Shown: piece after piece, positions 1 through 14,266 of the stretch | How positions within the stretch are numbered: the first letter of the stretch is position 1 | How the letters are laid out: every line of letters starts with the position of its first letter | From: a virus | IMG/VR virus record: IMGVR_UViG_3300035099_000181 | Span: 1-64,000 of that record | Length of the DNA stretch: 64,000 bases | Direction: 5' to 3' (one strand) | Made by a program: the position numbers and the translations under genes | The notes under the pieces: generated by a model | The model's database searches: none | Seen by the model: only the letters and a program-made list of their open reading frames with translations | Told to the model about the DNA's origin: nothing

Positions 1-127
1 GGAATTCCTTTCCGAGTACGGCTTTCTGGGAAAAATTTGCTATCGGAATTCCTTTCCGAGTACGGCTTTCTGGGAAAAATTTGCTATCGGAATTCCTTTC
101 CGAGTACGGCTTTCTGGGAAAAATTTG
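1..127. repeat. Tandem repeat, 44-bp unit, about 2.9 copies (may extend beyond the window start)
   Basis: GGAATTCCTTTCCGAGTACGGCTTTCTGGGAAAAATTTGCTATC starts at 1, 45 and 89; a further GAAAAATTTG occurs near 153. Confidence 0.95.
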
Positions 128-545
128 GTACTGGAATCCCTCTGTCAAATCAGAAAAATTTGGTTGGGTCATTCCTTTGAGGTTTCCATACAATGCTAGA
201 ATTGCTATTTTCAGTTTTAGATAAAAATTATGGCAGGAGTTCTTTTAGAGACTTCTCGTATGATATCGGAGTTTCTTTCTCCTGACTGATTCTTGGGAAT
301 GCTTATGGAAAAGTTTGATTGTCCTGTCGGCCTTTCTCCCTTTTGTGCTCTATGTCTGCAATGCTGCTGGAGGCCTATATATGGGATAGCATCAGGCAAG
401 CAATGCCTGCGGATGTGCGGGTTTTTCTATTCTTACTATTTACCTCCCTGCTTTCTTAGCGTACCGTTAGGTTGGCAGCGAGACGAATGGGATGCTTTTC
501 CGTGAAGTTAGTCTCAATTTTAGGAAGATCTGACGGAGAATTGAA

Positions 546-845: not shown

Positions 846-2582
846 ATGAGGCTTAATTTGCTATCCACCGAGGAGCTGGTTCACAACATCATCCGGTTCA
901 ACTCGGAGGGCAGAGCATTCCAGGCTGTAGCTGCCAATCGAGACACATTTGCGCGGGTATGTGAGGAAGTCCTGCGCCGGGATGATAAAGCATCTTATTA
1001 TGAGTGGGTGCTTGAATCATTCTTGCGAGAGGGTATTCGGCATGAGGATGTACTGCATTTCTATATTCGGGCGTTTTTAGGCTACGTGATCCCGCGCGGG
1101 GGCTCGCGGTTCTGCCGCAACCATGTAGCGCCATTCACGTTCGTCGCTGACATGTTCTTCGAGAAAGTGCGGAGTGCTATCGCATTTGCCAACAGGACGG
1201 GGGGCAAGACGATTGACATGGCTATTCTGAATCATCTGGATATGGCATTCAAGCCTGGGTGCGAGATAGCCTCTGCGGGGGCCAGCAGGGATCAGGCGGG
1301 CAGGATGTACAAGTACTTCCTCGGTTTCCACAACTCTAACGACTTCCTGCAGGACTTGCTCCTCAAGGAGCCCACCAGGAGTCTGACCTTGTATAGAAAC
1401 CAAAGTTCCTTAGAGATCATAACAGGCTCATTTAAGGGCCTGAACTCCAGCCATCCTAATAAGCTGCGCGTTGATGAGGTGGAGTTGATGGACTGGTCGG
1501 TGCTTCAGCAGGGGATCAGCATGTCCATGACTTCGCAGTCCGTGGCCACTGGCCGGGAGATAATGTCTCAGATGGCATTTTCTTCTACAAGGAAGACAGA
1601 CTCTGGAACTATGCAGCGTCTTTTAGACCTTGCAGCGAAGGACAGGCGCAAGCAAGGCGGGCTGGTCATCTACGAGTGGTGCATCCTGGATATCATCCAG
1701 AAGTGTACACGCCTATGCGCAAGCGACAAAGTGTTCGGGGACTGTCCGATAGTTGAGGTATGCAAGGGCAGGGCACATAATGGGAGTGGGTTCTACCGTA
1801 TAGATGACTTCATAGACAAAGTGATAACCCTGGACAGGGATGTGCTAGAAGCGGAATGGTTCAACCTGAGGCCTTCGCGTCAGATCTATGTATATGGCGG
1901 GTACTGGGACAGGGAAAAGCATTTCCTTCCCCCAATTGACCTGAAGGGCAAGGATATCGTGCATGCAGGGGGGATAGACTTCGGGAGCAGTCCTGGGCAT
2001 CCGTTTGTATTCAAGGTCTTCATGTGTGACGTAAGCAAGTTTCGCAAGGCTGTAGAGGAGGCAGGGACGGACGATCTGGTTCGAGAGAAGATCACATTCC
2101 ATCTCGTCTACGAGTACAGGTCGGGCTCTGCTACATTGGAAGAGCACGTTTCCAAGATCAAGGGTTCGCAGTACTGGAGGGTGGACATGCCAATATGGGC
2201 TGATCCGTCGGCAAAGCAGGAAAGGATGGACTTGGAGATGACTTACGGCTTGCCCACATTGTCTGCTGTGAACGCGGTGGAGGCAGGGATAAGCACTGTC
2301 CGCTCGCACCTGCAGTTTATCGCTGGGCAGGCACATTACTTCATCCACGAGGGGTACCTAGACTGTGATGATGAGGAACTTGAGAGCACGGACGTGGAAT
2401 TCGGGCGATACAAGTACAAGCGGCTTGCGGATGGGCGCGTGAACAGGAAGGAACCTGAGAAGGCACACGACCATGGCATGGATGTTGATAGGTATGTGCT
2501 AGAGAGTGCCTACCCGTACTTTCGAGAGCTGTTCACGCCTGAATTTGAGGACATAGAGCAAGGAGGTTATTGGTTTGGCTAA
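846..2582 (+). CDS. terL: Terminase large subunit
   Basis: Walker A-like ANRTGGKT, Walker B LRVDEVE, RNase H-like nuclease motifs [14 protein letters not shown] and [10 protein letters not shown]; located upstream of the portal. Confidence 0.92.
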
Positions 2583-3192
2583 GCGCAAGCCGATGTCCTA
2601 TGAGATCCAGGACCAGGTTAAGGACGGCATACGGCGCTATTCGGCACTGGTGTCTTCTGGGGCTGACGGTAGCTGTGTGGCCGAATGCCGCAATGCGATT
2701 TATTCCCTGATGTCGGACTTTATGATGATCTGGGTCACGACGATACTTGCCCGGTGGAAGAGGTTCGAGTCATACCAGGAGCGCCTTTCCGCGAGTTGGG
2801 ATGCATTCTGCTTCTGTCTGGATCGCTATCGGAATTACGACATTCCCGTGCCCAAGCATTTTTACGATTATTCCAGGTATTTTCTGCTTTCGCATTACGC
2901 CAAGAAGGACCATGTGTTCTTACCGATAGAGGACTTGCAGAACACGCTGGCTCTCTCCGAGTTGGCCGAGACCGCGCCTTTCGAGAACCTACTGTCCTTA
3001 TACCAGTTCCGGGAGGCTATGCCAGAACTTTACAAGATAGTCTGGGACGACGCCTTGCTGTCCTTGTGCTCCCGCAATGATAGACAGGTAACGGCTCGGC
3101 CAGGCCTGAACACGAATGCCTATTTTCATGTCAAGAAGGGATTCAAGGCTGTCATTTGCTCCGTCCTGGGCGTGAGTGGTGTCACGCGCTAA
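2575..3192 (+). CDS. Divergent sigma-70/ECF-like transcription factor (putative late sigma)
   Basis: [17 protein letters not shown]...[15 protein letters not shown] resembles sigma region 2; [16 protein letters not shown]...[19 protein letters not shown] resembles region 4; 205 aa. Confidence 0.5.
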
Positions 3193-3228
3193 AAGTTAGC
3201 ATTCCTGGCCCTACCTTTTATATTTTGA
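3189..3228 (+). promoter_or_regulatory. Putative phage late promoter, copy 1 (CTAAAAGTTA-N15-CCTTTTATATTTTGA)
   Basis: Same bipartite motif with the same spacing recurs at 7297-7336; lies upstream of the portal. Confidence 0.7.
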
Positions 3229-3253
3229 GATCTTTAACCATGGAGATGATGGT

Positions 3254-4783
3254 ATGGACAACAGCAAAATAAGAAAGTCTTCTACTCTGAGGCAGTCTCG
3301 CGAGGCTCTTGAGCTTCGCCGGAATGAGTATGAGACTAAACAGTATGAGGTGGCCACAAGGGAGCTAGGCCTCGTCCTTGAGGCTAGGAATATCGTGGTT
3401 GACGAGGATTTGGAGCGAGGCTGGATGCTCGTAGGTCAGGCAGGGGAGCGGCCAACCGAGACTGAGCACGAGACTGTGCAGGCTTCTGCATACAAACTGT
3501 ACCATGAGAACTTGTTTGCCCGCAGTATTGTACGCAACCTCGCCAAGTTCGTCCTGGGCAAGGGTCCGACTATCATTCCTGATGATGCCAATCCGGAAGT
3601 CAAGAAGACCTGGCAAGAGTTTCGCAAGCTCAACAAGATGAACCAGCGGGAGAAGGAGATAGTATCCCGCACGTTCCGGGATGGCGAGGTGTTCCTGCGC
3701 AAGTTCGTTGACGAAACGGACGGCACGGTCAAGATCCGCTTCATACGGGCCTCCCTCATATCTGATCCCTCCGGAGGGATGGATGACGGGAAGTCTTTTG
3801 GTATAGAGACTGACCCGGATGACATCGAGACGCCTGTCGTGTACTACAAGCAGAAGGTGGACAGGAAAGGACAGTCCCTTGGCAGGGGTGAGTTCGAGGC
3901 CATCCCCGCCGATGAGATCATTCACATAAAAGTGTTCTGCGACGCAGACCAGAAGCGAGGGGTCACGATCTACCGCGTGTGCGCCAAGAGGCTGAAGCAA
4001 TATGAGGAGTGGCTGCTGGACAGGATTGTTCTGAACAAGATCCGCACTGCAATAACCCTCGTCAAGAAGGTTGATGCGCCTGCCGGGACCGTGAAAAGCA
4101 TCCGGGAGGAAGGACTATCCACAAGGATGCCTGAATCTTACAAGAGACAGAAGATGCTGGAGCGAGGGACGGTCATCACGGCGAGTAAGGGGATTAGTTA
4201 TGAGATGCTATCCCCCAACATCAACGCTTCTGACGTGGCCGAGGATGGGCGCTCCATGCTCTTATCAATCGCTACGGGCGTTGGGTTTCCCGAGATGTTA
4301 CTGACTTCCTCCTACGAGAATGCAAACTTTGCATCCACGATGGTTGCGCAGAATCCCTGGGTCCGCGAGGTTGAGGACTGGCAGGACTTCTTTACGTCAT
4401 TCTACCAGGAGCTTTTTGAACTGGTGATCCAGACTAAGATCGATGCCGGGATGCTCCCTAGCGACACGGAAACCACCTGCGCGGTAGAGTTCCCACCAAT
4501 GATAGCAGCGAACCTGAAGGAAATGGCCGAGGCATACGAAATTCAGCAGAAGTACCGTATAATGAGTAAGAGGACATGGCGGGCCAAGATGGGCTTGGAC
4601 AATGATCAGGAGAAACTCTACATCGAGGAGGAGGATGCGGAGGAGGGCAACATTCCAAGCAAACTGGGGGTTCCGCCTGTGCCGGGGCCTGTCCCTGGGC
4701 AGATTCCGCAGCAGGGCGCAGGATTCAACATGCCAAAGGCCCCGGTGAATCAGTACGGGAGTATGCCAGAAGAAGATGAATAG
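3254..4783 (+). CDS. Portal protein (lambda-family-like)
   Basis: RTFRDGEVF, GIETDPDD, EIIHIK, QKRGV and NANFAS motifs; 509 aa; downstream of terL. Confidence 0.9.
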   Translation: MDNSKIRKSSTLRQSREALELRRNEYETKQYEVATRELGLVLEARNIVVDEDLERGWMLVGQAGERPTETEHETVQASAYKLYHENLFARSIVRNLAKFVLGKGPTIIPDDANPEVKKTWQEFRKLNKMNQREKEIVSRTFRDGEVFLRKFVDETDGTVKIRFIRASLISDPSGGMDDGKSFGIETDPDDIETPVVYYKQKVDRKGQSLGRGEFEAIPADEIIHIKVFCDADQKRGVTIYRVCAKRLKQYEEWLLDRIVLNKIRTAITLVKKVDAPAGTVKSIREEGLSTRMPESYKRQKMLERGTVITASKGISYEMLSPNINASDVAEDGRSMLLSIATGVGFPEMLLTSSYENANFASTMVAQNPWVREVEDWQDFFTSFYQELFELVIQTKIDAGMLPSDTETTCAVEFPPMIAANLKEMAEAYEIQQKYRIMSKRTWRAKMGLDNDQEKLYIEEEDAEEGNIPSKLGVPPVPGPVPGQIPQQGAGFNMPKAPVNQYGSMPEEDE

Positions 4784-5690
4784 GAAAGAAGTTTATGAGG
4801 CCGTTGAGGAATTCACGAGCGAATGTTCGCCTTTTTCCGCTTATATTCAGGAGAAAGTCCCCGGTACGGGCTTGAAAGGCGGGCATTGGATAACAACACA
4901 TACCGGTCGCCATGTTTATATTGGAGACAGGGGGGCAAACAAGGGCCGAGTGCTAGCCGGACCTTCTGAACTTATCGGCCAGAGGGTGGGAAAGAAGACA
5001 GTTGGTGCTGCTGATATTCTCAAGGCTGAGGCCGAGCGCACTAAGCTGTCCGCAAAGGTCAAGTTTGACAGGGTTGATGAACTTGAGAAGAAGTTCAATG
5101 CTATCACTGGGGAAAATGCGAGAAACCAGAAGTCAAAGGATATAAAAATAGCTGAACATGCGGACTGTGCCTCTTTGGTGATGCATACGGCAATAAGGCC
5201 AGGCTATGATGTTGACACTCACGCTAAGGTCAAGGCCTATGGTGCTACTACATTAGAGGGAAGGCACGTTAACGTTGATTCCAAGGGCGATGTGTCCCTG
5301 AAATTCGTGGGCAAGAAGGGAGTCAATCAGGACATTCCGATAACAGATTCAAAAGTCGCTTCTATGCTGAAGGCGAAGGCCAAGCAAGCTGGGGAGACAG
5401 GGCGATTGTTCTCCAGAGTATCTGGTGAATCGCTCCTGGCCTATATCAAGAAGTTCGACGGCGGAGGATTCAAGACGAAGGACCTGCGGACTTATGTCGG
5501 GACCAATACGGCAAAGGATACGATAGCGGGAATGGCAATTCCAAAAAACGCTACGCAGTACAAGGCTGCTGTTCGACAAGTGGCTGAAGTTGTATCTAAG
5601 AAGCTAGGCAATACCCCGACGATAGCGTTGCAATCCTACATCAATCCAAAAGTCTTTATAAAATGGAGGAAGAGCGCAAATGTCGAATAA
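4776..5690 (+). CDS. DNA topoisomerase IB catalytic-core protein with an N-terminal WITxxxGRHV motif
   Basis: TopIB motifs in order: IRPG, YGATTLEGRHV, FVGKKGV, FKTKDLRTY, LGNTPTIALQSYINP (catalytic R, K, R, N, Y). Confidence 0.88.
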   Translation: MNRKEVYEAVEEFTSECSPFSAYIQEKVPGTGLKGGHWITTHTGRHVYIGDRGANKGRVLAGPSELIGQRVGKKTVGAADILKAEAERTKLSAKVKFDRVDELEKKFNAITGENARNQKSKDIKIAEHADCASLVMHTAIRPGYDVDTHAKVKAYGATTLEGRHVNVDSKGDVSLKFVGKKGVNQDIPITDSKVASMLKAKAKQAGETGRLFSRVSGESLLAYIKKFDGGGFKTKDLRTYVGTNTAKDTIAGMAIPKNATQYKAAVRQVAEVVSKKLGNTPTIALQSYINPKVFIKWRKSANVE

Positions 5691-5853
5691 GATGACATTG
5701 GATGAATGGGAAGAATACTTGAACAGCCCGCCCATAGATTGGCGGAAGTATGCAGACCTTGACCCGGACCCTGACGATGAGGAACTGGATAAGACGCCTC
5801 CTGATGTGGTAGAACTTTTGGGGTTCGACCCTAAAGAATTCTCGAAAGCGTAG
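5680..5853 (+). CDS. Small acidic protein, 57 aa (absent from the ORF track)
   Basis: MSNKMTLDEWEEYLNSPPIDWRKYADLDPDPDDEELDKTPPDVVELLGFDPKEFSKA; its ATG overlaps the end of the TopIB gene. Confidence 0.7.
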   Translation: MSNKMTLDEWEEYLNSPPIDWRKYADLDPDPDDEELDKTPPDVVELLGFDPKEFSKA

Positions 5854-5966
5854 TATAATATATAGAGGATATTCAGGTTGGACATAGTGGATGCTGTGAA
5901 TAGGTTTGTATTCGAATGTTTCGGGGAATTCCTGTCGGGTCCTGAGATCCTTGAGAAAGGATAGAC

Positions 5967-6185
5967 ATGGAAGAAAAACAGGAAGCCATAAGGCGAGCTG
6001 TCTCAAACATGGTAGATCCGGAGGACTTCTTCGGGGAGTTTCAATGCGATAGTTGCAAGCATTACAAGAGCAGGAATTCCTGCTCCGCATTCGAGCACAT
6101 ACCTATGGATATTATCGTCAACAGGTTTATTCACGCTAAGAAATATCCCGGTCAGGATAATGATGTCGTCTACGAGGCAGAGTAG
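5967..6185 (+). CDS. Small Cys/His protein, putative metal-binding
   Basis: CDSCKH...CSAF..IP...H...YPGQDN pattern; stop codon abuts the MuF start. Confidence 0.75.
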   Translation: MEEKQEAIRRAVSNMVDPEDFFGEFQCDSCKHYKSRNSCSAFEHIPMDIIVNRFIHAKKYPGQDNDVVYEAE

Positions 6186-7271
6186 ATGCCTCCCAAATCC
6201 GCATCTGAATCCTTCCGTGACCTCCTCCTGAAGCATAGCCATTACCTCTACAAAGTTGAGAATGGCACAATCCAGCAGATGCTTGCTCCATATCTGCGAG
6301 CCAAGGACGAGATCTACAGCAAGATCGTGTCCCTTGAGGGGAAGATAGCGGGGAAGGATGTGCCCTGGGCTTTGCAAAGGCTCCGAGCGCAGATGGCCGA
6401 GATAGACGCTGTGCTGCAAGTCGCCGCCGCTGAGGCTACAGGCATACTTGGAAGTGTCATGCTTAACGTGGCCAATCATGATGCCGCAATGATCCAGGAT
6501 TCCTTGAGCAAGACCTTCGGCACGATTGGCGTCAACGTCACTTCCATCCCGTTCTGGCAAGTAGATACGATCCTGAACAGCCCGCTGCGCGGCGAGTCCA
6601 TAGGAGAAAAGATCTTGTGGGGCAACTCCCAGGCCGTAAAGTTGATGCTCGGCGAATTAACACAGAGCATAATGCAGGGCGAGGACATAGTTAGGGCTGC
6701 CAGGAGACTCATTGATCCTGTAAGAAAGGGACTTGAGGGTGCGGCTGCCGATGTGATCAAGCGCAGAGCCATGATGATAGCCCGCTCCGAGATACTCTAT
6801 GTCAGCAACCAAGTCGCCAGACAGATTTTCTTCAACAATCGGGATATCCTCAAGGGAGCGCAGTATGTGGCAACTCTTGATAATAGGACTTGCCTGATAT
6901 GTGGAGCTCAGGACGGCAAGATCTTCCCGTTCTTGCCCAATGGGGATCACAAGGGGCCGGTTCTGCCTATCCATCCCCAGTGCAGATGTATCTACTCGCC
7001 CGTCACGAAGTCTTGGGAAGAGCTTGGGGACAAGTCTCTGAATCCCAATATAGCCCCTGAAAATAGGAAGAATTACTTCGCGGGCAAGCCCTTGGAGGCT
7101 CCTATCACATATGAGGAATGGCTGAAAGGTCTTGACGACAAGGAAGTCGTAGATATTCTTGGCAAAAAGCGTTATGCCTTATGGAAATCCGGCAAGATCA
7201 AGTTGTCCCAGATGGCTACGAGCACAGATGTTCTTACCGTTGACGAACTCACCAAAAAAGCACAATCCTGA
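6186..7271 (+). CDS. Head morphogenesis protein (MuF / SPP1 gp7 family)
   Basis: MIARSE, YVATLDNRTCLICGAQDG, PIHPQCRC and TYEEWLK motifs. Confidence 0.92.
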   Translation: MPPKSASESFRDLLLKHSHYLYKVENGTIQQMLAPYLRAKDEIYSKIVSLEGKIAGKDVPWALQRLRAQMAEIDAVLQVAAAEATGILGSVMLNVANHDAAMIQDSLSKTFGTIGVNVTSIPFWQVDTILNSPLRGESIGEKILWGNSQAVKLMLGELTQSIMQGEDIVRAARRLIDPVRKGLEGAAADVIKRRAMMIARSEILYVSNQVARQIFFNNRDILKGAQYVATLDNRTCLICGAQDGKIFPFLPNGDHKGPVLPIHPQCRCIYSPVTKSWEELGDKSLNPNIAPENRKNYFAGKPLEAPITYEEWLKGLDDKEVVDILGKKRYALWKSGKIKLSQMATSTDVLTVDELTKKAQS

Positions 7272-7296
7272 TCCTCTTTCTTTTATCATTGCTCTC

Positions 7297-7336
7297 CTAA
7301 AAGTTATGTCCTGAAAGACCTCCTTTTATATTTTGA
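7297..7336 (+). promoter_or_regulatory. Putative phage late promoter, copy 2
   Basis: CTAAAAGTTA-N15-CCTTTTATATTTTGA; both boxes identical to 3189-3228. Confidence 0.7.
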
Positions 7337-7377
7337 AAGGCTCGATGCAACCTGAGAATATAAAAGGAGAATCAGAA

Positions 7378-8010
7378 ATGCCTTATCCTAATTTTCATAC
7401 CTGCAGAATCGCTGACCCAAGCGAGTTTGATCCTAAGACCTATGGGCAAGATACCCGCAAGCATGACGGCAAGGAATATTCTGTCTTGTATGCTGCTAAG
7501 AAGGACGGCGGGTCTTCTGCAGAGCAAGCCTACCGATATCCCAAGGACGTATGGACCGCTGCTTCAGCTTCTGCACATTGCAAGACGCATGGCGGATCGT
7601 TTGAGGCTGCGTCTGGCAAGCCTTCCGGGAAGGAATCCATTTTCGAGTTTGACGACTATTATGAGGGCGTGAGCACCAAGTCTTGGGCTTCTGTTGATAA
7701 GTCTTCCTTGCCCAAGTCCGCATTCTTGTGGATCGAGGGAGATGGCAAGACGAAGGATCAATGGCACCTGCCTTATAAGGATGAAGAAGGGAACATTAAT
7801 CTCGGTGCTTTGCGAGCGATATCAGCAGCGATAGCCGGGGCGAGGACGGGCACGCCTATGGATGTCCCTTCCGAAGTGAAAACAAAGCTGGATGCCCTGC
7901 TGAAGAAGTACAACATCGGCCAGGAAAGTGTGCGGGAATCCTATGTCAATGAGTATGACGCAGAGATAGCGGTTCTAGGATTTGTAGATGAGTGCTTCCA
8001 GAGCTTCTAA
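7378..8010 (+). CDS. Head-associated protein with two small domains
   Basis: AAAGGAGA RBS then MPYPNFHTCRIADP...QAYRYPKDVWT and LPYKD..G.INLGALRA..AAIAGAR; position between MuF and the protease. Confidence 0.65.
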   Translation: MPYPNFHTCRIADPSEFDPKTYGQDTRKHDGKEYSVLYAAKKDGGSSAEQAYRYPKDVWTAASASAHCKTHGGSFEAASGKPSGKESIFEFDDYYEGVSTKSWASVDKSSLPKSAFLWIEGDGKTKDQWHLPYKDEEGNINLGALRAISAAIAGARTGTPMDVPSEVKTKLDALLKKYNIGQESVRESYVNEYDAEIAVLGFVDECFQSF

Positions 8011-9454
8011 TGAGGATTGGAAAATGAGGTATGCAATGAGATTGGTCAAATCAGCGGATTTGAGAGAGGACTTTTCGGACTTTTTTGACGGCGTGACAGA
8101 GGCTTCTATAGACAAGGACAACCGGACCGTCAAAGGCGTATGTGTGTTTGGCAGGCGTGAGTCTGCCAACAAGCGCATTTACCAAGATCGAGCTATAGAG
8201 TCTATCTGTAGGCTTGCCGATGGCACGAAGTGTTACCTGAATCACCCTACAAAGACTGAGCTGAGGGAACGTGAGGGCGTGCGCGACTTGCGAGACTGGG
8301 CTGGAGTCTATGTCAATCCACGTAAGCAGGGGGACAAGGTATTCGCTGACCTGGTTGTGCGAGAGCAGTACTTCCCGCTTGTGCAAGACATAGCTGTTAT
8401 GAAGCCTGCTAATGTTGGCAATTCCATCAATGCTCGTGTGAAGACAGCTAGTGACGAGAAGGGAATGGAGAACGTCGCGGATGTGGAGTCTTTGAAATCC
8501 ATTGATTTAGTTGCCTCGGCAGCTACTACAACTTCTCTCTTTGAGGCTGCATTGGAGCAGAATTCCAAGGAGGAAAAGGATGGGTTGGTACAGTACTTTG
8601 CCGAGTGGCTTCTCCTGCAGCAAGGCTTTCAGGTCACAGAGAGCCTGCTTAAGGACAAGATAGCTAATGACAAGATCCAGCGCGAGATCAGTGACCTGAG
8701 TTGGACCGCGCAGGACATGATAACCGGCATCTTGCAGGATACGGAGAAGGGCCTGACTTGGGAGCAGAAGAAGTCCAAGATCATGGCTGTATTCGACGAA
8801 CTGGCAGAGGAGGTAAAGAAGAGGGTGCCGAAGGCGGGGACAGACGCGGGCACTGGAGTCGGAAGCTCTCCCCAGTCTGAGGCAAGCAAGGAGGCGGAAA
8901 AAGGAGGTGACGAGGGAGCAATGGAAATCACAGTTGAGATGTTGAGGAAAGACCATTCTGAGATCGTGGAGGCGCTCCTCGCGGAGCAGAAGGAAAGCGC
9001 GAGCAGGGAAAAGGCTGCGTTTGAAGCCAAGATCCAGGAGCGGGACGGCAAGGTCATGGAATTGACCGAGTCCGTAAGACAGAAGGATGAGGAGATCAAA
9101 GGGCTTAAGACCAGGCTCGACGAGAAGGAGGTAGCTGAAAGGCTGGCCGAAAAGGAGATGATGATCCTTGAGGCGACGAAGGGGCTGCCTAAAGAGGTCA
9201 TGACCGAGATCTTCCTTGAGGATCTGCGGGCCGTCCAGGAGAAAAAGGGTGATGGAGATGCGGTCATTACGATCAAGGAGCAGATCGAGCAGCGCGTCGA
9301 GGACCGCAAGAAGATCCTGTCCTTGAGCAAGGGAAAGATCAAGGGCTCGGGGGACCAGTTCGTTGAGGACTTGGGGAGAACCAAGAAGGCGTTCTCCGGT
9401 ACTCAGGAGGTATCTGAGGCTGTGGAGGACTTTATTTCGATGGTGAAAAGTTAG
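7988..9454 (+). CDS. Prohead protease fused to scaffold (true start probably 8036; possible internal scaffold start at 8921)
   Basis: SANKRIY, YLNHP, NSINARV and SIDLVASAA protease-type motifs; charged coiled-coil C-terminal half; GAGGGAG RBS before MEITVE at 8921. Confidence 0.8.
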   Translation: MSASRASNEDWKMRYAMRLVKSADLREDFSDFFDGVTEASIDKDNRTVKGVCVFGRRESANKRIYQDRAIESICRLADGTKCYLNHPTKTELREREGVRDLRDWAGVYVNPRKQGDKVFADLVVREQYFPLVQDIAVMKPANVGNSINARVKTASDEKGMENVADVESLKSIDLVASAATTTSLFEAALEQNSKEEKDGLVQYFAEWLLLQQGFQVTESLLKDKIANDKIQREISDLSWTAQDMITGILQDTEKGLTWEQKKSKIMAVFDELAEEVKKRVPKAGTDAGTGVGSSPQSEASKEAEKGGDEGAMEITVEMLRKDHSEIVEALLAEQKESASREKAAFEAKIQERDGKVMELTESVRQKDEEIKGLKTRLDEKEVAERLAEKEMMILEATKGLPKEVMTEIFLEDLRAVQEKKGDGDAVITIKEQIEQRVEDRKKILSLSKGKIKGSGDQFVEDLGRTKKAFSGTQEVSEAVEDFISMVKS

Positions 9455-12940: not shown

Positions 12941-14266
12941 ATGAAAAAAGTATTATCTTCAAGAGTTCTTCTATTTCTTCTATTTCTCCTGTTTCTTCCT
13001 ATTATGGCTTTTGCCCAACCAGGCTGGGATACTATTCTCAATAGACCCAATACTTTCACCAAGCCCCAGGTATTCAGTCAGGGGGCCAGCTTTTTGGCAT
13101 ATGTCGGCATCGGGACGACGAGTCCGCAGAGAACTATGCATGTTGTTGGTGTTCAACGATGGGAACGTCAGGGGCAAAATATAGAATTTAATCCAAATTG
13201 GAGTCTACTCAACACTGATGCTGCTTGTTCAGTTTTAGAAGATAAAAATTTGCGTTTTATCTTGAGGGATGCAACTATTGGTTATGTGCCACTGTTTTTA
13301 GGAACTGGTGGCAATGTTGGAGTAGGTGGGACGGCGGCAAATACTTCGCCTGTAATTTATGCAGGAGCAACTGGCAACGTCGGCATCAGGACGACGGCGC
13401 CTGCCTCTGCTTTGGATGTAAGTGGCACGGTATCGGTTGGAACAGTTACAGCAATAGCGAATCCGATGAGACTTACGATGGCTGACAACGGTACTGGAAT
13501 AACAATAAAAGCAAATGCGATTCAGGCAAGCGTGACGACAGCAGACACATACGTTGATTTCCGCTCGACCACAGGATCTGAGGGGTCCATTGCCGGCACT
13601 GAAGTCGCAGGGGTTATTGCCTACAATACTTTCACGGGAAGTCATTATACCTGCCTCATTGATGCTGACAAGGATAGGGTGCAAGTTGGCGATCTTCTGG
13701 AGGCTGTTGATGAGCCTATCACGGTTCTCGACTGGCCCAAGCGAGAGAAAGATGCGGCGCACTTCGAGAATGTAGAGCAACCGGTTTACGATGAGAATGG
13801 AAAGCCAGTGATGGTGGAGAAGCGAAACGAGAAGGGCGAGGTTATATTTGAAGCAGAGCAAGCGCCTTCTGGGCCAAATCCTGCGCCAGTAATGGTTCAG
13901 AAACGAGAGACTGTGCAGAAACTTGTTGCGGCGACCTACTACGAGGCCAGTACCAAGCCACAACTTTTCAAGAGTCGCATCTGCCGGACTAAGGGCAGTA
14001 AGGCGGCCATAGGCGTCTGGGGAGGCAGGGACAAAGAAGGCAGAGATATGGTTCTTGCGATAGGCACAGGAGTTGTCAAGGTGGTGAACACTGGCGTAAA
14101 TCTTGAAATTGGAGATCTTCTGATATCCTCAGCGAGGGCTGGCTGCGTTGAGGTTCAAGATGATGATATTGTGCGCAACAAGACAGTTGCCAAGATAACG
14201 CAGAACGTCAAATGGGAAGCTGGCGAGACCGTCAAGTGGGTAAAATGCATCTACCTTGGTGGCTAA
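12941..14266 (+). CDS. Fibre-like protein with predicted signal peptide, VGIGTT repeats and a C-terminal intramolecular-chaperone-like domain
   Basis: MKKVLSSRVLLFLLFLLFLPIMAFA-Q; VGIGTTSP, NVGVGGT, NVGIRTTAP; FTGSH...GDLLISS...QDDDIVRNKTVAK...CIY. Confidence 0.65.
   Translation: MKKVLSSRVLLFLLFLLFLPIMAFAQPGWDTILNRPNTFTKPQVFSQGASFLAYVGIGTTSPQRTMHVVGVQRWERQGQNIEFNPNWSLLNTDAACSVLEDKNLRFILRDATIGYVPLFLGTGGNVGVGGTAANTSPVIYAGATGNVGIRTTAPASALDVSGTVSVGTVTAIANPMRLTMADNGTGITIKANAIQASVTTADTYVDFRSTTGSEGSIAGTEVAGVIAYNTFTGSHYTCLIDADKDRVQVGDLLEAVDEPITVLDWPKREKDAAHFENVEQPVYDENGKPVMVEKRNEKGEVIFEAEQAPSGPNPAPVMVQKRETVQKLVAATYYEASTKPQLFKSRICRTKGSKAAIGVWGGRDKEGRDMVLAIGTGVVKVVNTGVNLEIGDLLISSARAGCVEVQDDDIVRNKTVAKITQNVKWEAGETVKWVKCIYLGG

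Follow-up and report, generated by a model that had tools for sequence, protein, structure and literature searches.

A type IB topoisomerase lacking its N-terminal domain and a linked acidic peptide in the head operon of an uncultured phage

Poxviruses carry a type IB topoisomerase (TopIB) in the virion. Vaccinia virions contain the packaged enzyme, which supports early transcription and whose catalytic domain on its own stays active, with weaker DNA binding. Bacteria and phages have long figured in discussions of where the poxvirus enzymes came from. We know of no report, and found none, of a topoisomerase in the head of a tailed phage, nor do we know of an acidic partner for any cellular or poxvirus TopIB. 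The known DNA mimics (T7 Ocr, ArdA, Ugi, p56) are folded proteins that imitate the arrangement of phosphates in DNA. The polyvalent proteins of phage head modules include InPase, NUDIX, ADP-ribosyltransferase, 2H and zeta-toxin domains, TopIB not being among the domains described (PMC5512222), and the survey of MuF polymorphic toxins by Jamet et al. contains no topoisomerase (PMC5576092). Our literature search found no paper describing a portal-linked TopIB cassette or a TopIB built into a phage head. Here we describe a TopIB gene and a small acidic open reading frame (ORF), which lie together between the portal and MuF genes of the IMG/VR virus record IMGVR_UViG_3300035099_000181. This record is a genome of 101,070 bp with direct terminal repeats, from an uncultured phage. 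Its first 64 kb (positions 1 to 64,000) were analyzed, and this whole stretch is called the window below.

Sequence comparisons lead us to a reading that we hold with moderate confidence. The window would carry a split, HWVTI-tagged copy, without the N-terminal domain, of a widespread phage cassette for a head-loaded TopIB with an obligate acidic partner. The complete cassette would consist of a head-protein anchor, a linker tag, the TopIB and an acidic module, which we name LGFDP after its conserved motif. A sequence-only reading of the same DNA had already recognized a TopIB catalytic domain with its catalytic residues between portal and MuF. The sequence features that it named all exist in place, and both the domain and the residues were recovered by profile and structure searches.

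The TopIB ORF (4776-5690, + strand) encodes 304 amino acids (aa), with a disordered, tag-bearing N-terminus followed by the catalytic domain (residues ~76-304, 5001-5687, + strand). It matched PF01028 over residues 92-275 with 83.5 bits, against a cut-off of 23.7 (E value 1.8e-23), and with 84.2 bits in the genome search. The best relative with a solved structure was the TopIB of D. radiodurans (PDB 2f4q, E 1.2e-12), the identity being ~25% in the structural alignment. The window residues R141, K180, R238, N279 and Y288 aligned with R137, K174, R239, N280 and Y289 of 2f4q, and the columns of this catalytic pentad were invariant or nearly so in an alignment of 81 sequences. An AlphaFold2 (AF2) model built from that alignment had a mean predicted local distance difference test (pLDDT) score of 82.6, rising above 90 for residues 80-304, and showed a confident TopIB fold for residues 75-304. 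The top 20 Foldseek matches of the model were all TopIB structures (probability 1.00), among them human Top1 and the D. radiodurans and variola enzymes (E 1e-9 to 1e-10), the Leishmania enzyme, and a further entry named “DNA topoisomerase” (6z01/6z03). Together, the pentad, the model and the Foldseek matches point to a complete active site and an intact catalytic fold, and to an apparently active enzyme for which DNA relaxation is predicted. The protein is strongly basic, with a charge of +19 and an isoelectric point (pI) of 9.74.

The first part of the protein departs from the bacterial pattern. PF21338, the N-domain of bacterial TopIBs, was not among the precomputed domains of the window enzyme, and residues 1-100 gave no Pfam match even at E 10. 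A custom hidden Markov model (HMM) of the N-domain found no match in the window copy (L001), the domain being present in 108 of 114 unique relatives. When 407 relatives with 50–57% identity were compared, their matches spanned only query residues ~70-303, and nearly all of them carried PF21338. In the alignment, neither the IPPAW nor the GRxQxxYS strand of the N-domain had a counterpart, and residues 1-61 were modelled as disordered, with pLDDT below 50. Without the N-terminal beta-sheet domain, the window TopIB is not of the full-length bacterial type (PF21338 plus PF01028). Four other catalytic-domain-only copies were found (L064, L069, L077 and L078).

In the place of the N-domain the window protein has the tag “GGHWITTHTGRHVYIG...AGPSELIG”, with the pattern “HWVTI..G.HV.I..GP..L.G” (residues 28-77, 4857-5006, + strand). 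The earlier proposal that the N-terminal domain is replaced by a HWITTHTGRHVYIG segment was thus correct on both counts, the absence of PF21338 and the presence of the segment. The tag aligns with a module of ~35 residues (HWVTI.G.HVFI..G.I.KGPAHL.G), which precedes a normal N-domain in two TopIB relatives, P0101 and P0117. A profile of the module found it three times in a 1421-aa Portal_Mu+MuF protein, lying between its modules, and once in a 728-aa protein, where it immediately follows the portal domain. It also occurred in histidine-phosphatase (His_Phos_1) proteins. As judged from this distribution, the HWVTI segment is a recurrent tag of head-tethered portal/MuF polyvalent proteins.

Relatives of the window TopIB were retrieved from IMG/VR by a profile scan, which placed them on 209 contigs, and 80 loci were examined; a locus search with the single window protein had given no match. 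The TopIB ORFs of the relatives ranged from 276 to 1303 aa. A portal domain stood N-terminal to TopIB in 24 of the 35 long forms (PF06381 in 20, PF04860 in two, and PF05136 and PF06074). MuF was fused to TopIB in three of the 35, and others were joined with InPase or NUDIX. Standalone TopIB copies were preceded by genes for portal (5 of 21), MuF, InPase, ADP-ribosyltransferase or NUDIX. In the window, the upstream neighbor is a portal protein of 509 aa with a Pro/Gly-rich acidic C-terminal tail (3254-4783, + strand; PF05136 E 3.3e-27, phrog_21 E 1.2e-35), and the TopIB start overlaps the portal stop by 8 nucleotides (nt). Seen beside the fused relatives, this arrangement looks like a split form of a portal-TopIB fusion. 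The portal-to-MuF interval is closed by a MuF-type minor head protein of 361 aa (6186-7271, + strand; PF04233 E 1.1e-11, phrog_241 E 3e-51), so that the order is portal, TopIB, acidic ORF, a 72-aa ORF and MuF. The portal and MuF fusions of the relatives indicate that TopIB is probably built into the virus head, and probably a head component in the window phage. This agrees with the earlier assignment of the enzyme to the head module, as do the relatives joined to portal, MuF, InPase or NUDIX. Like polyvalent effectors, the cassette is encoded in the head module beside, or fused to, portal or MuF.

The modules of large polyvalent proteins are separated by the motif “F.E..HPR...G.F”, and the window protein has its HWVTI tag at that position. 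In a longer form, “F.E..HPR...G.F..GG”, the motif stood between every module pair in L030:6233-9355 and L107:1-5301, and in most relatives it immediately precedes TopIB. It may serve for cleavage or docking.

The architecture of the relatives also bears on whether the enzyme could be an ordinary cytoplasmic topoisomerase, serving replication or transcription, whose place in the head operon is incidental. GenBank phages contained only distant TopIBs (25–29% identity), in jumbo phages and one Bacteroides phage. These are standalone genes, and the Bacteroides copy has no annotated head genes nearby, as a cytoplasmic role would lead one to expect. Members of the present clade, however, are covalently fused to portal or MuF, and the window copy appears translationally coupled to portal and bears a tag otherwise seen behind portal domains, making a cytoplasmic enzyme highly improbable here.

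The acidic ORF (5680-5853, + strand) follows TopIB directly. Its start overlaps the TopIB stop by 11 nt, and its own GGAGG lies 9 nt before the ATG, inside the end of the TopIB gene. The product is a small, strongly acidic protein of 57 aa, with a net charge of −11 and a pI of 4.05, much as described in the sequence-only reading. To follow the acidic module through the loci, we scanned with an alignment subset and then with a degenerate DNA pattern, the full alignment being too variable. In the forward direction, the module HMM matched in 75 of the 80 TopIB loci, mostly within 40 nt or less of the TopIB end. In reverse, a search with the peptide pattern found TopIB directly upstream in 33 of 35 loci. 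The degenerate DNA pattern listed 80 loci, 73 of them with room upstream, and TopIB was directly adjacent in 68 of the 73. Among the five others, L134 had a TopIB 826 nt upstream, and in L144 the TopIB was adjacent on the opposite strand, giving 68 to 70 of 73 modules with a neighboring TopIB. In L130 (4810-6897, − strand) and L188 part of the TopIB N-domain remains on the portal protein, followed by an acidic LGFDP tail, and the L106 portal (2881-4569) ends in the HPR motif and the latter half of the acidic module. These three appear to be TopIB deletions that left the partner module behind. There was one module per locus, next to TopIB. With linkage of ~94–95% in both directions, the acidic ORF is, on genomic grounds, a specific and conserved partner of TopIB. 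The association with TopIB homologs that the sequence-only reading had looked to a neighborhood survey to reveal is therefore found, in 75 of 80 loci forward and, by direct adjacency, in 68 of 73 in reverse.

Two loci had unusual arrangements. L006 carried two acidic modules, one at 7639-7803 (− strand), convergent and abutting the TopIB stop, and one at 8720-8881 (+ strand), 1.1 kb downstream on the TopIB strand, which suggests a local inversion or duplication. On L076, a jumbo-sized viral contig of 281 kb, TopIB copies were found at 6698-7630 and 13004-13762, ~5 kb apart, with an acidic module behind the first only.

Of 70 unique TopIB-peptide pairs, 61 were out of frame, mostly with a short start/stop overlap, suggesting that the two genes are translationally coupled. 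We also considered stop-codon readthrough or recoding of the pairs, and rejected it because only nine of the 70 were in frame. In the window, portal, TopIB and peptide are probably made in coupled amounts, since TopIB starts 8 nt inside the portal gene and the peptide 11 nt inside the TopIB gene.

For a joint alignment of TopIB and peptide, natural fusions and four in-frame pairs, read through one stop, served as bridging rows. Free acidic peptides were left out, as MAFFT set them on the TopIB N-domain and not on the module at the C-terminus of the fusions. Five of six TopIBs without an N-domain had a peptide that lacked its LPDVHFG..DWR half, versus 29 of 108 others, and the window is an exception to this covariation. 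Loss of the N-domain together with loss of the peptide half is only hinted at, because the peptides of L064, L069 and L078 (at least three of the five) are near-identical and represent few independent events.

The ORFs downstream of the TopIB relatives form one family, with the consensus “LPDVHFG....P.DWR...DDPDDDEEL.ETP.DV(I/V)..LGFDP”. Positions D32, L47, G48, F49 and P51 were invariant in the family alignment, the median charge was −13.5, and Asp and Glu made up 30% of the residues. LPDVHFG is absent from the window peptide, in which the DWR, acidic and LGFDP parts are present. Searched against 1.84 billion representatives, the module profile matched 1057 clusters (50% identity) at E ≤ 1e-3 and 377 at E ≤ 1e-10. 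Most members of the family are standalone peptides of 50–100 aa. About 30 of the best 150 representatives were at least 150 aa long, nearly all of these with the module at residues 1-60. The module gave no Pfam or PHROG match and no match in GenBank phage records, its profile found nothing below E 0.18 in the PDB, and the ESM Atlas had no usable match for the peptide.

The gene next to a standalone peptide most often encoded MuF, in 11 of 32 loci, and once each Acb1, a zeta toxin, an ADP-ribosyltransferase, a NUDIX and a 2H protein. Two counter-defence enzymes occurred in the same head-module array downstream of the peptide, Acb1 (an anti-CBASS nuclease, E 1.3e-19) and the zeta toxin (loci L005-L078). 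P0236 and P0259 have the acidic module at the start, followed by MuF, and carry an intein splicing domain as well.

Our preferred reading, a head-loaded TopIB with an acidic partner, allows a mechanism to be proposed. As the relatives suggest, TopIB would become part of the procapsid close to or at the portal crown, being itself the C-terminal extension of the portal in most long forms and, in the window phage, tethered non-covalently by the HWVTI tag. During assembly and inside the filled head, the peptide would prevent the enzyme from contacting DNA. Tentatively, we propose that the acidic peptide binds the basic TopIB, the DV(I/V)xxLGFDP helix serving as the anchor and the Asp/Glu run covering the DNA-binding surface. 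The charges are complementary, +19 for TopIB versus −11 for the peptide. When a natural fusion (L107:523-1530) was modelled with AF2, pLDDT stayed below 50 in the acidic run and reached 72–84 in the block with the DVIAMLGFDP helix; only pLDDT values were considered, and those of the LGFDP block are a hint of binding. In such a complex the peptide would act as a DNA-mimic inhibitor, as the sequence-only reading had also supposed. The chances seem to us evenly balanced that DNA then displaces the peptide, and that TopIB relaxes supercoils or torsional strain in the phage genome or the host DNA, at or just after ejection.

An enzyme with a tightly linked small gene directly downstream also recalls a toxin-immunity pair of the MuF polymorphic-toxin kind, in which TopIB would be a DNA-damaging toxin for delivery to competitors or hosts and the acidic peptide the immunity protein of the producer. 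This is the usual layout of such pairs, and MuF toxins with downstream immunity genes occupy a corresponding place (PMC5576092). The details, however, speak against it. TopIB and MuF are separate proteins in the window, no toxin domain is present in the MuF gene, and the active site is that of a normal, religating topoisomerase; the toxins listed by Jamet et al. include no topoisomerase. An immunity protein would also not be expected to be fused in cis to its toxin or to unrelated enzymes. The peptide does not look like a classical downstream immunity gene, because it may also stand as the N-terminal leader of the head protein that follows, or be fused in cis behind TopIB. We give a toxin-immunity pair a very low probability.

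Several observations weigh against a head-loaded TopIB that is held by an inhibitor and acts at ejection. The window shows no bias for or against the poxvirus-type site CCCTT (z −1.5). Without its N-domain, the enzyme may have weak DNA affinity and site choice. No member of the cassette was found among 50,697 GenBank phage records. Ejection, which the sequence-only reading supposed in speaking of an injected enzyme, would require cleavage of a portal-fused TopIB, and no cleavage site was identified. The remaining points concern the acidic module. It forms the N-terminal leader of MuF, DUF2213, 2H phosphoesterase plus XkdF protease, ADP-ribosyltransferase, NUDIX, GNAT, ferritin-like and InPase proteins, and is fused in cis behind TopIB in L030, L107/L109 and P0222. 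These leaders and fusions fit a linker or docking role as well as they fit an inhibitor.

The module could, in that case, be an element that connects TopIB or the portal with whichever head protein or cargo comes next, or a spacer that the prohead protease processes. Its presence at the N-terminus of at least eight different downstream proteins and its cis fusions in L030, L107 and P0222 are what one would expect of such an element, as are the HPR..G.F linker motif that follows the module in polyvalent proteins and its nearly constant N-terminal place in the ~30 long proteins among the best 150 representatives. Against this, each locus has a single module, always beside TopIB and not on each cargo, and standalone peptides of 50–100 aa predominate in the family. 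A general leader should moreover occur in phages without TopIB, yet the TopIB-less cases examined, L106 and L130/L188, look like deletions of the enzyme. On balance, a docking or linker element in place of an inhibitor seems to us unlikely, although clearly less so than a toxin-immunity pair.

The cleavage required for ejection raises the question of whether TopIB leaves the head. As a capsid-resident swivel, it would stay at the portal crown and free the twist of the phage's own DNA, either while ~100 kb are packed or on exit, and would never be delivered to the host. The portal fusion is the commonest architecture, and the portal stays in the capsid. Head-tethered variants without the N-domain recur (the window, L064, L069, L077 and L078), as would fit an enzyme that is kept beside its substrate and needs no site recognition. 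On the other hand, the cassette is also found on MuF, InPase, NUDIX and large polyvalent proteins, which are regarded as cargo for ejection (PMC5512222, PMC5576092), its neighbors include enzymes of counter-defence, Acb1 among them, and no phage is known to need a topoisomerase for packaging. We rate a resident swivel as improbable, on a level with the docking element.

A wider picture can be drawn, although we consider it rather doubtful. Many uncultured tailed phages would carry a capsid TopIB at the portal, where the disordered acidic peptide would form a removable, DNA-like plug, silencing the enzyme until the genome displaces it. TopIB would then serve as a swivel while DNA is packaged or ejected, or alter DNA topology in the cell within the first minute of infection. 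It would be the phage counterpart, and a possible evolutionary source, of the poxvirus virion topoisomerase.

The 72-aa ORF between the acidic peptide and MuF (5967-6185, + strand) is a local neighbor. The sequence-only reading had listed it as a CxxCxH protein following the acidic ORF. The open frame and its motif are real; a part in the system was not borne out, as it shows no linkage. It had no relative in a word search of 5.8 billion proteins and only one weak match (E 0.01) in ~115 TopIB loci, and its nearest Atlas clusters were small viral hypothetical proteins (scores 0.93–0.95). As a third component of the cassette it was rejected, given the lack of relatives and the single weak match.

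The head operon, on the + strand, occupies the left end of the window. It includes the large terminase (846-2582, + strand) and, between this and the portal, a 205-aa ORF (2575-3192, + strand) with no significant Pfam or PHROG match. A promoter and terminator scan of 3000-7500 gave nothing above chance. Ahead of the terminase gene, the genome opens with a 44-bp tandem repeat (window 1-141) of 3.2 copies with 95% identity, which may belong to the terminal repeat or packaging region.

A portal-tethered TopIB, if confirmed, would be an enzyme acting on DNA topology at the place where the genome enters and leaves the capsid. The acidic LGFDP family, with more than 1000 clusters, gains a context, its near-exclusive linkage to one enzyme making it a candidate natural regulator of TopIB. 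There is a possible link to poxviruses, which package a small TopIB of the same type. The window copy should be easy to test, as two small genes encode enzyme and peptide separately, so that each can be expressed with or without the other, and the enzyme occurs naturally as a catalytic-domain-only form.

Compared with known systems, the window enzyme shares the catalytic fold of the bacterial and poxvirus TopIBs (2f4q/3m4a; variola, vaccinia 2h7f, 1a41) and has the bacterial R-K-R-N-Y pentad. It differs from both in being without the N-terminal beta-sheet domain (PF21338) that clamps and reads DNA, and in its disordered, tagged N-terminus, its position in the head operon and its apparently obligate acidic partner. 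The cassette extends the known theme of packaged enzymes linked to portal and MuF. With the polyvalent proteins (PMC5512222) it has in common the location between portal and MuF, the fusions to portal or MuF, and the arrays with InPase, NUDIX, ADP-ribosyltransferase, 2H and zeta toxin, whereas that survey describes neither an acidic module paired with the enzyme nor a split form of three genes. Like the MuF polymorphic toxins (PMC5576092), it has a head-module enzyme followed by a small, tightly linked gene, and delivery together with the DNA has been proposed for both. Unlike these toxins, the window has no MuF-toxin fusion, as MuF contains only PF04233 and TopIB is a separate gene upstream, and the partner is often fused in cis or found on other enzymes. 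The acidic peptide resembles the DNA mimics T7 Ocr, ArdA, Ugi and p56 in being small, strongly acidic, phage-encoded and placed beside a DNA enzyme. It is set apart from these mimics by being predicted mostly disordered, with one short anchoring helix, and by having no sequence match to a solved structure.

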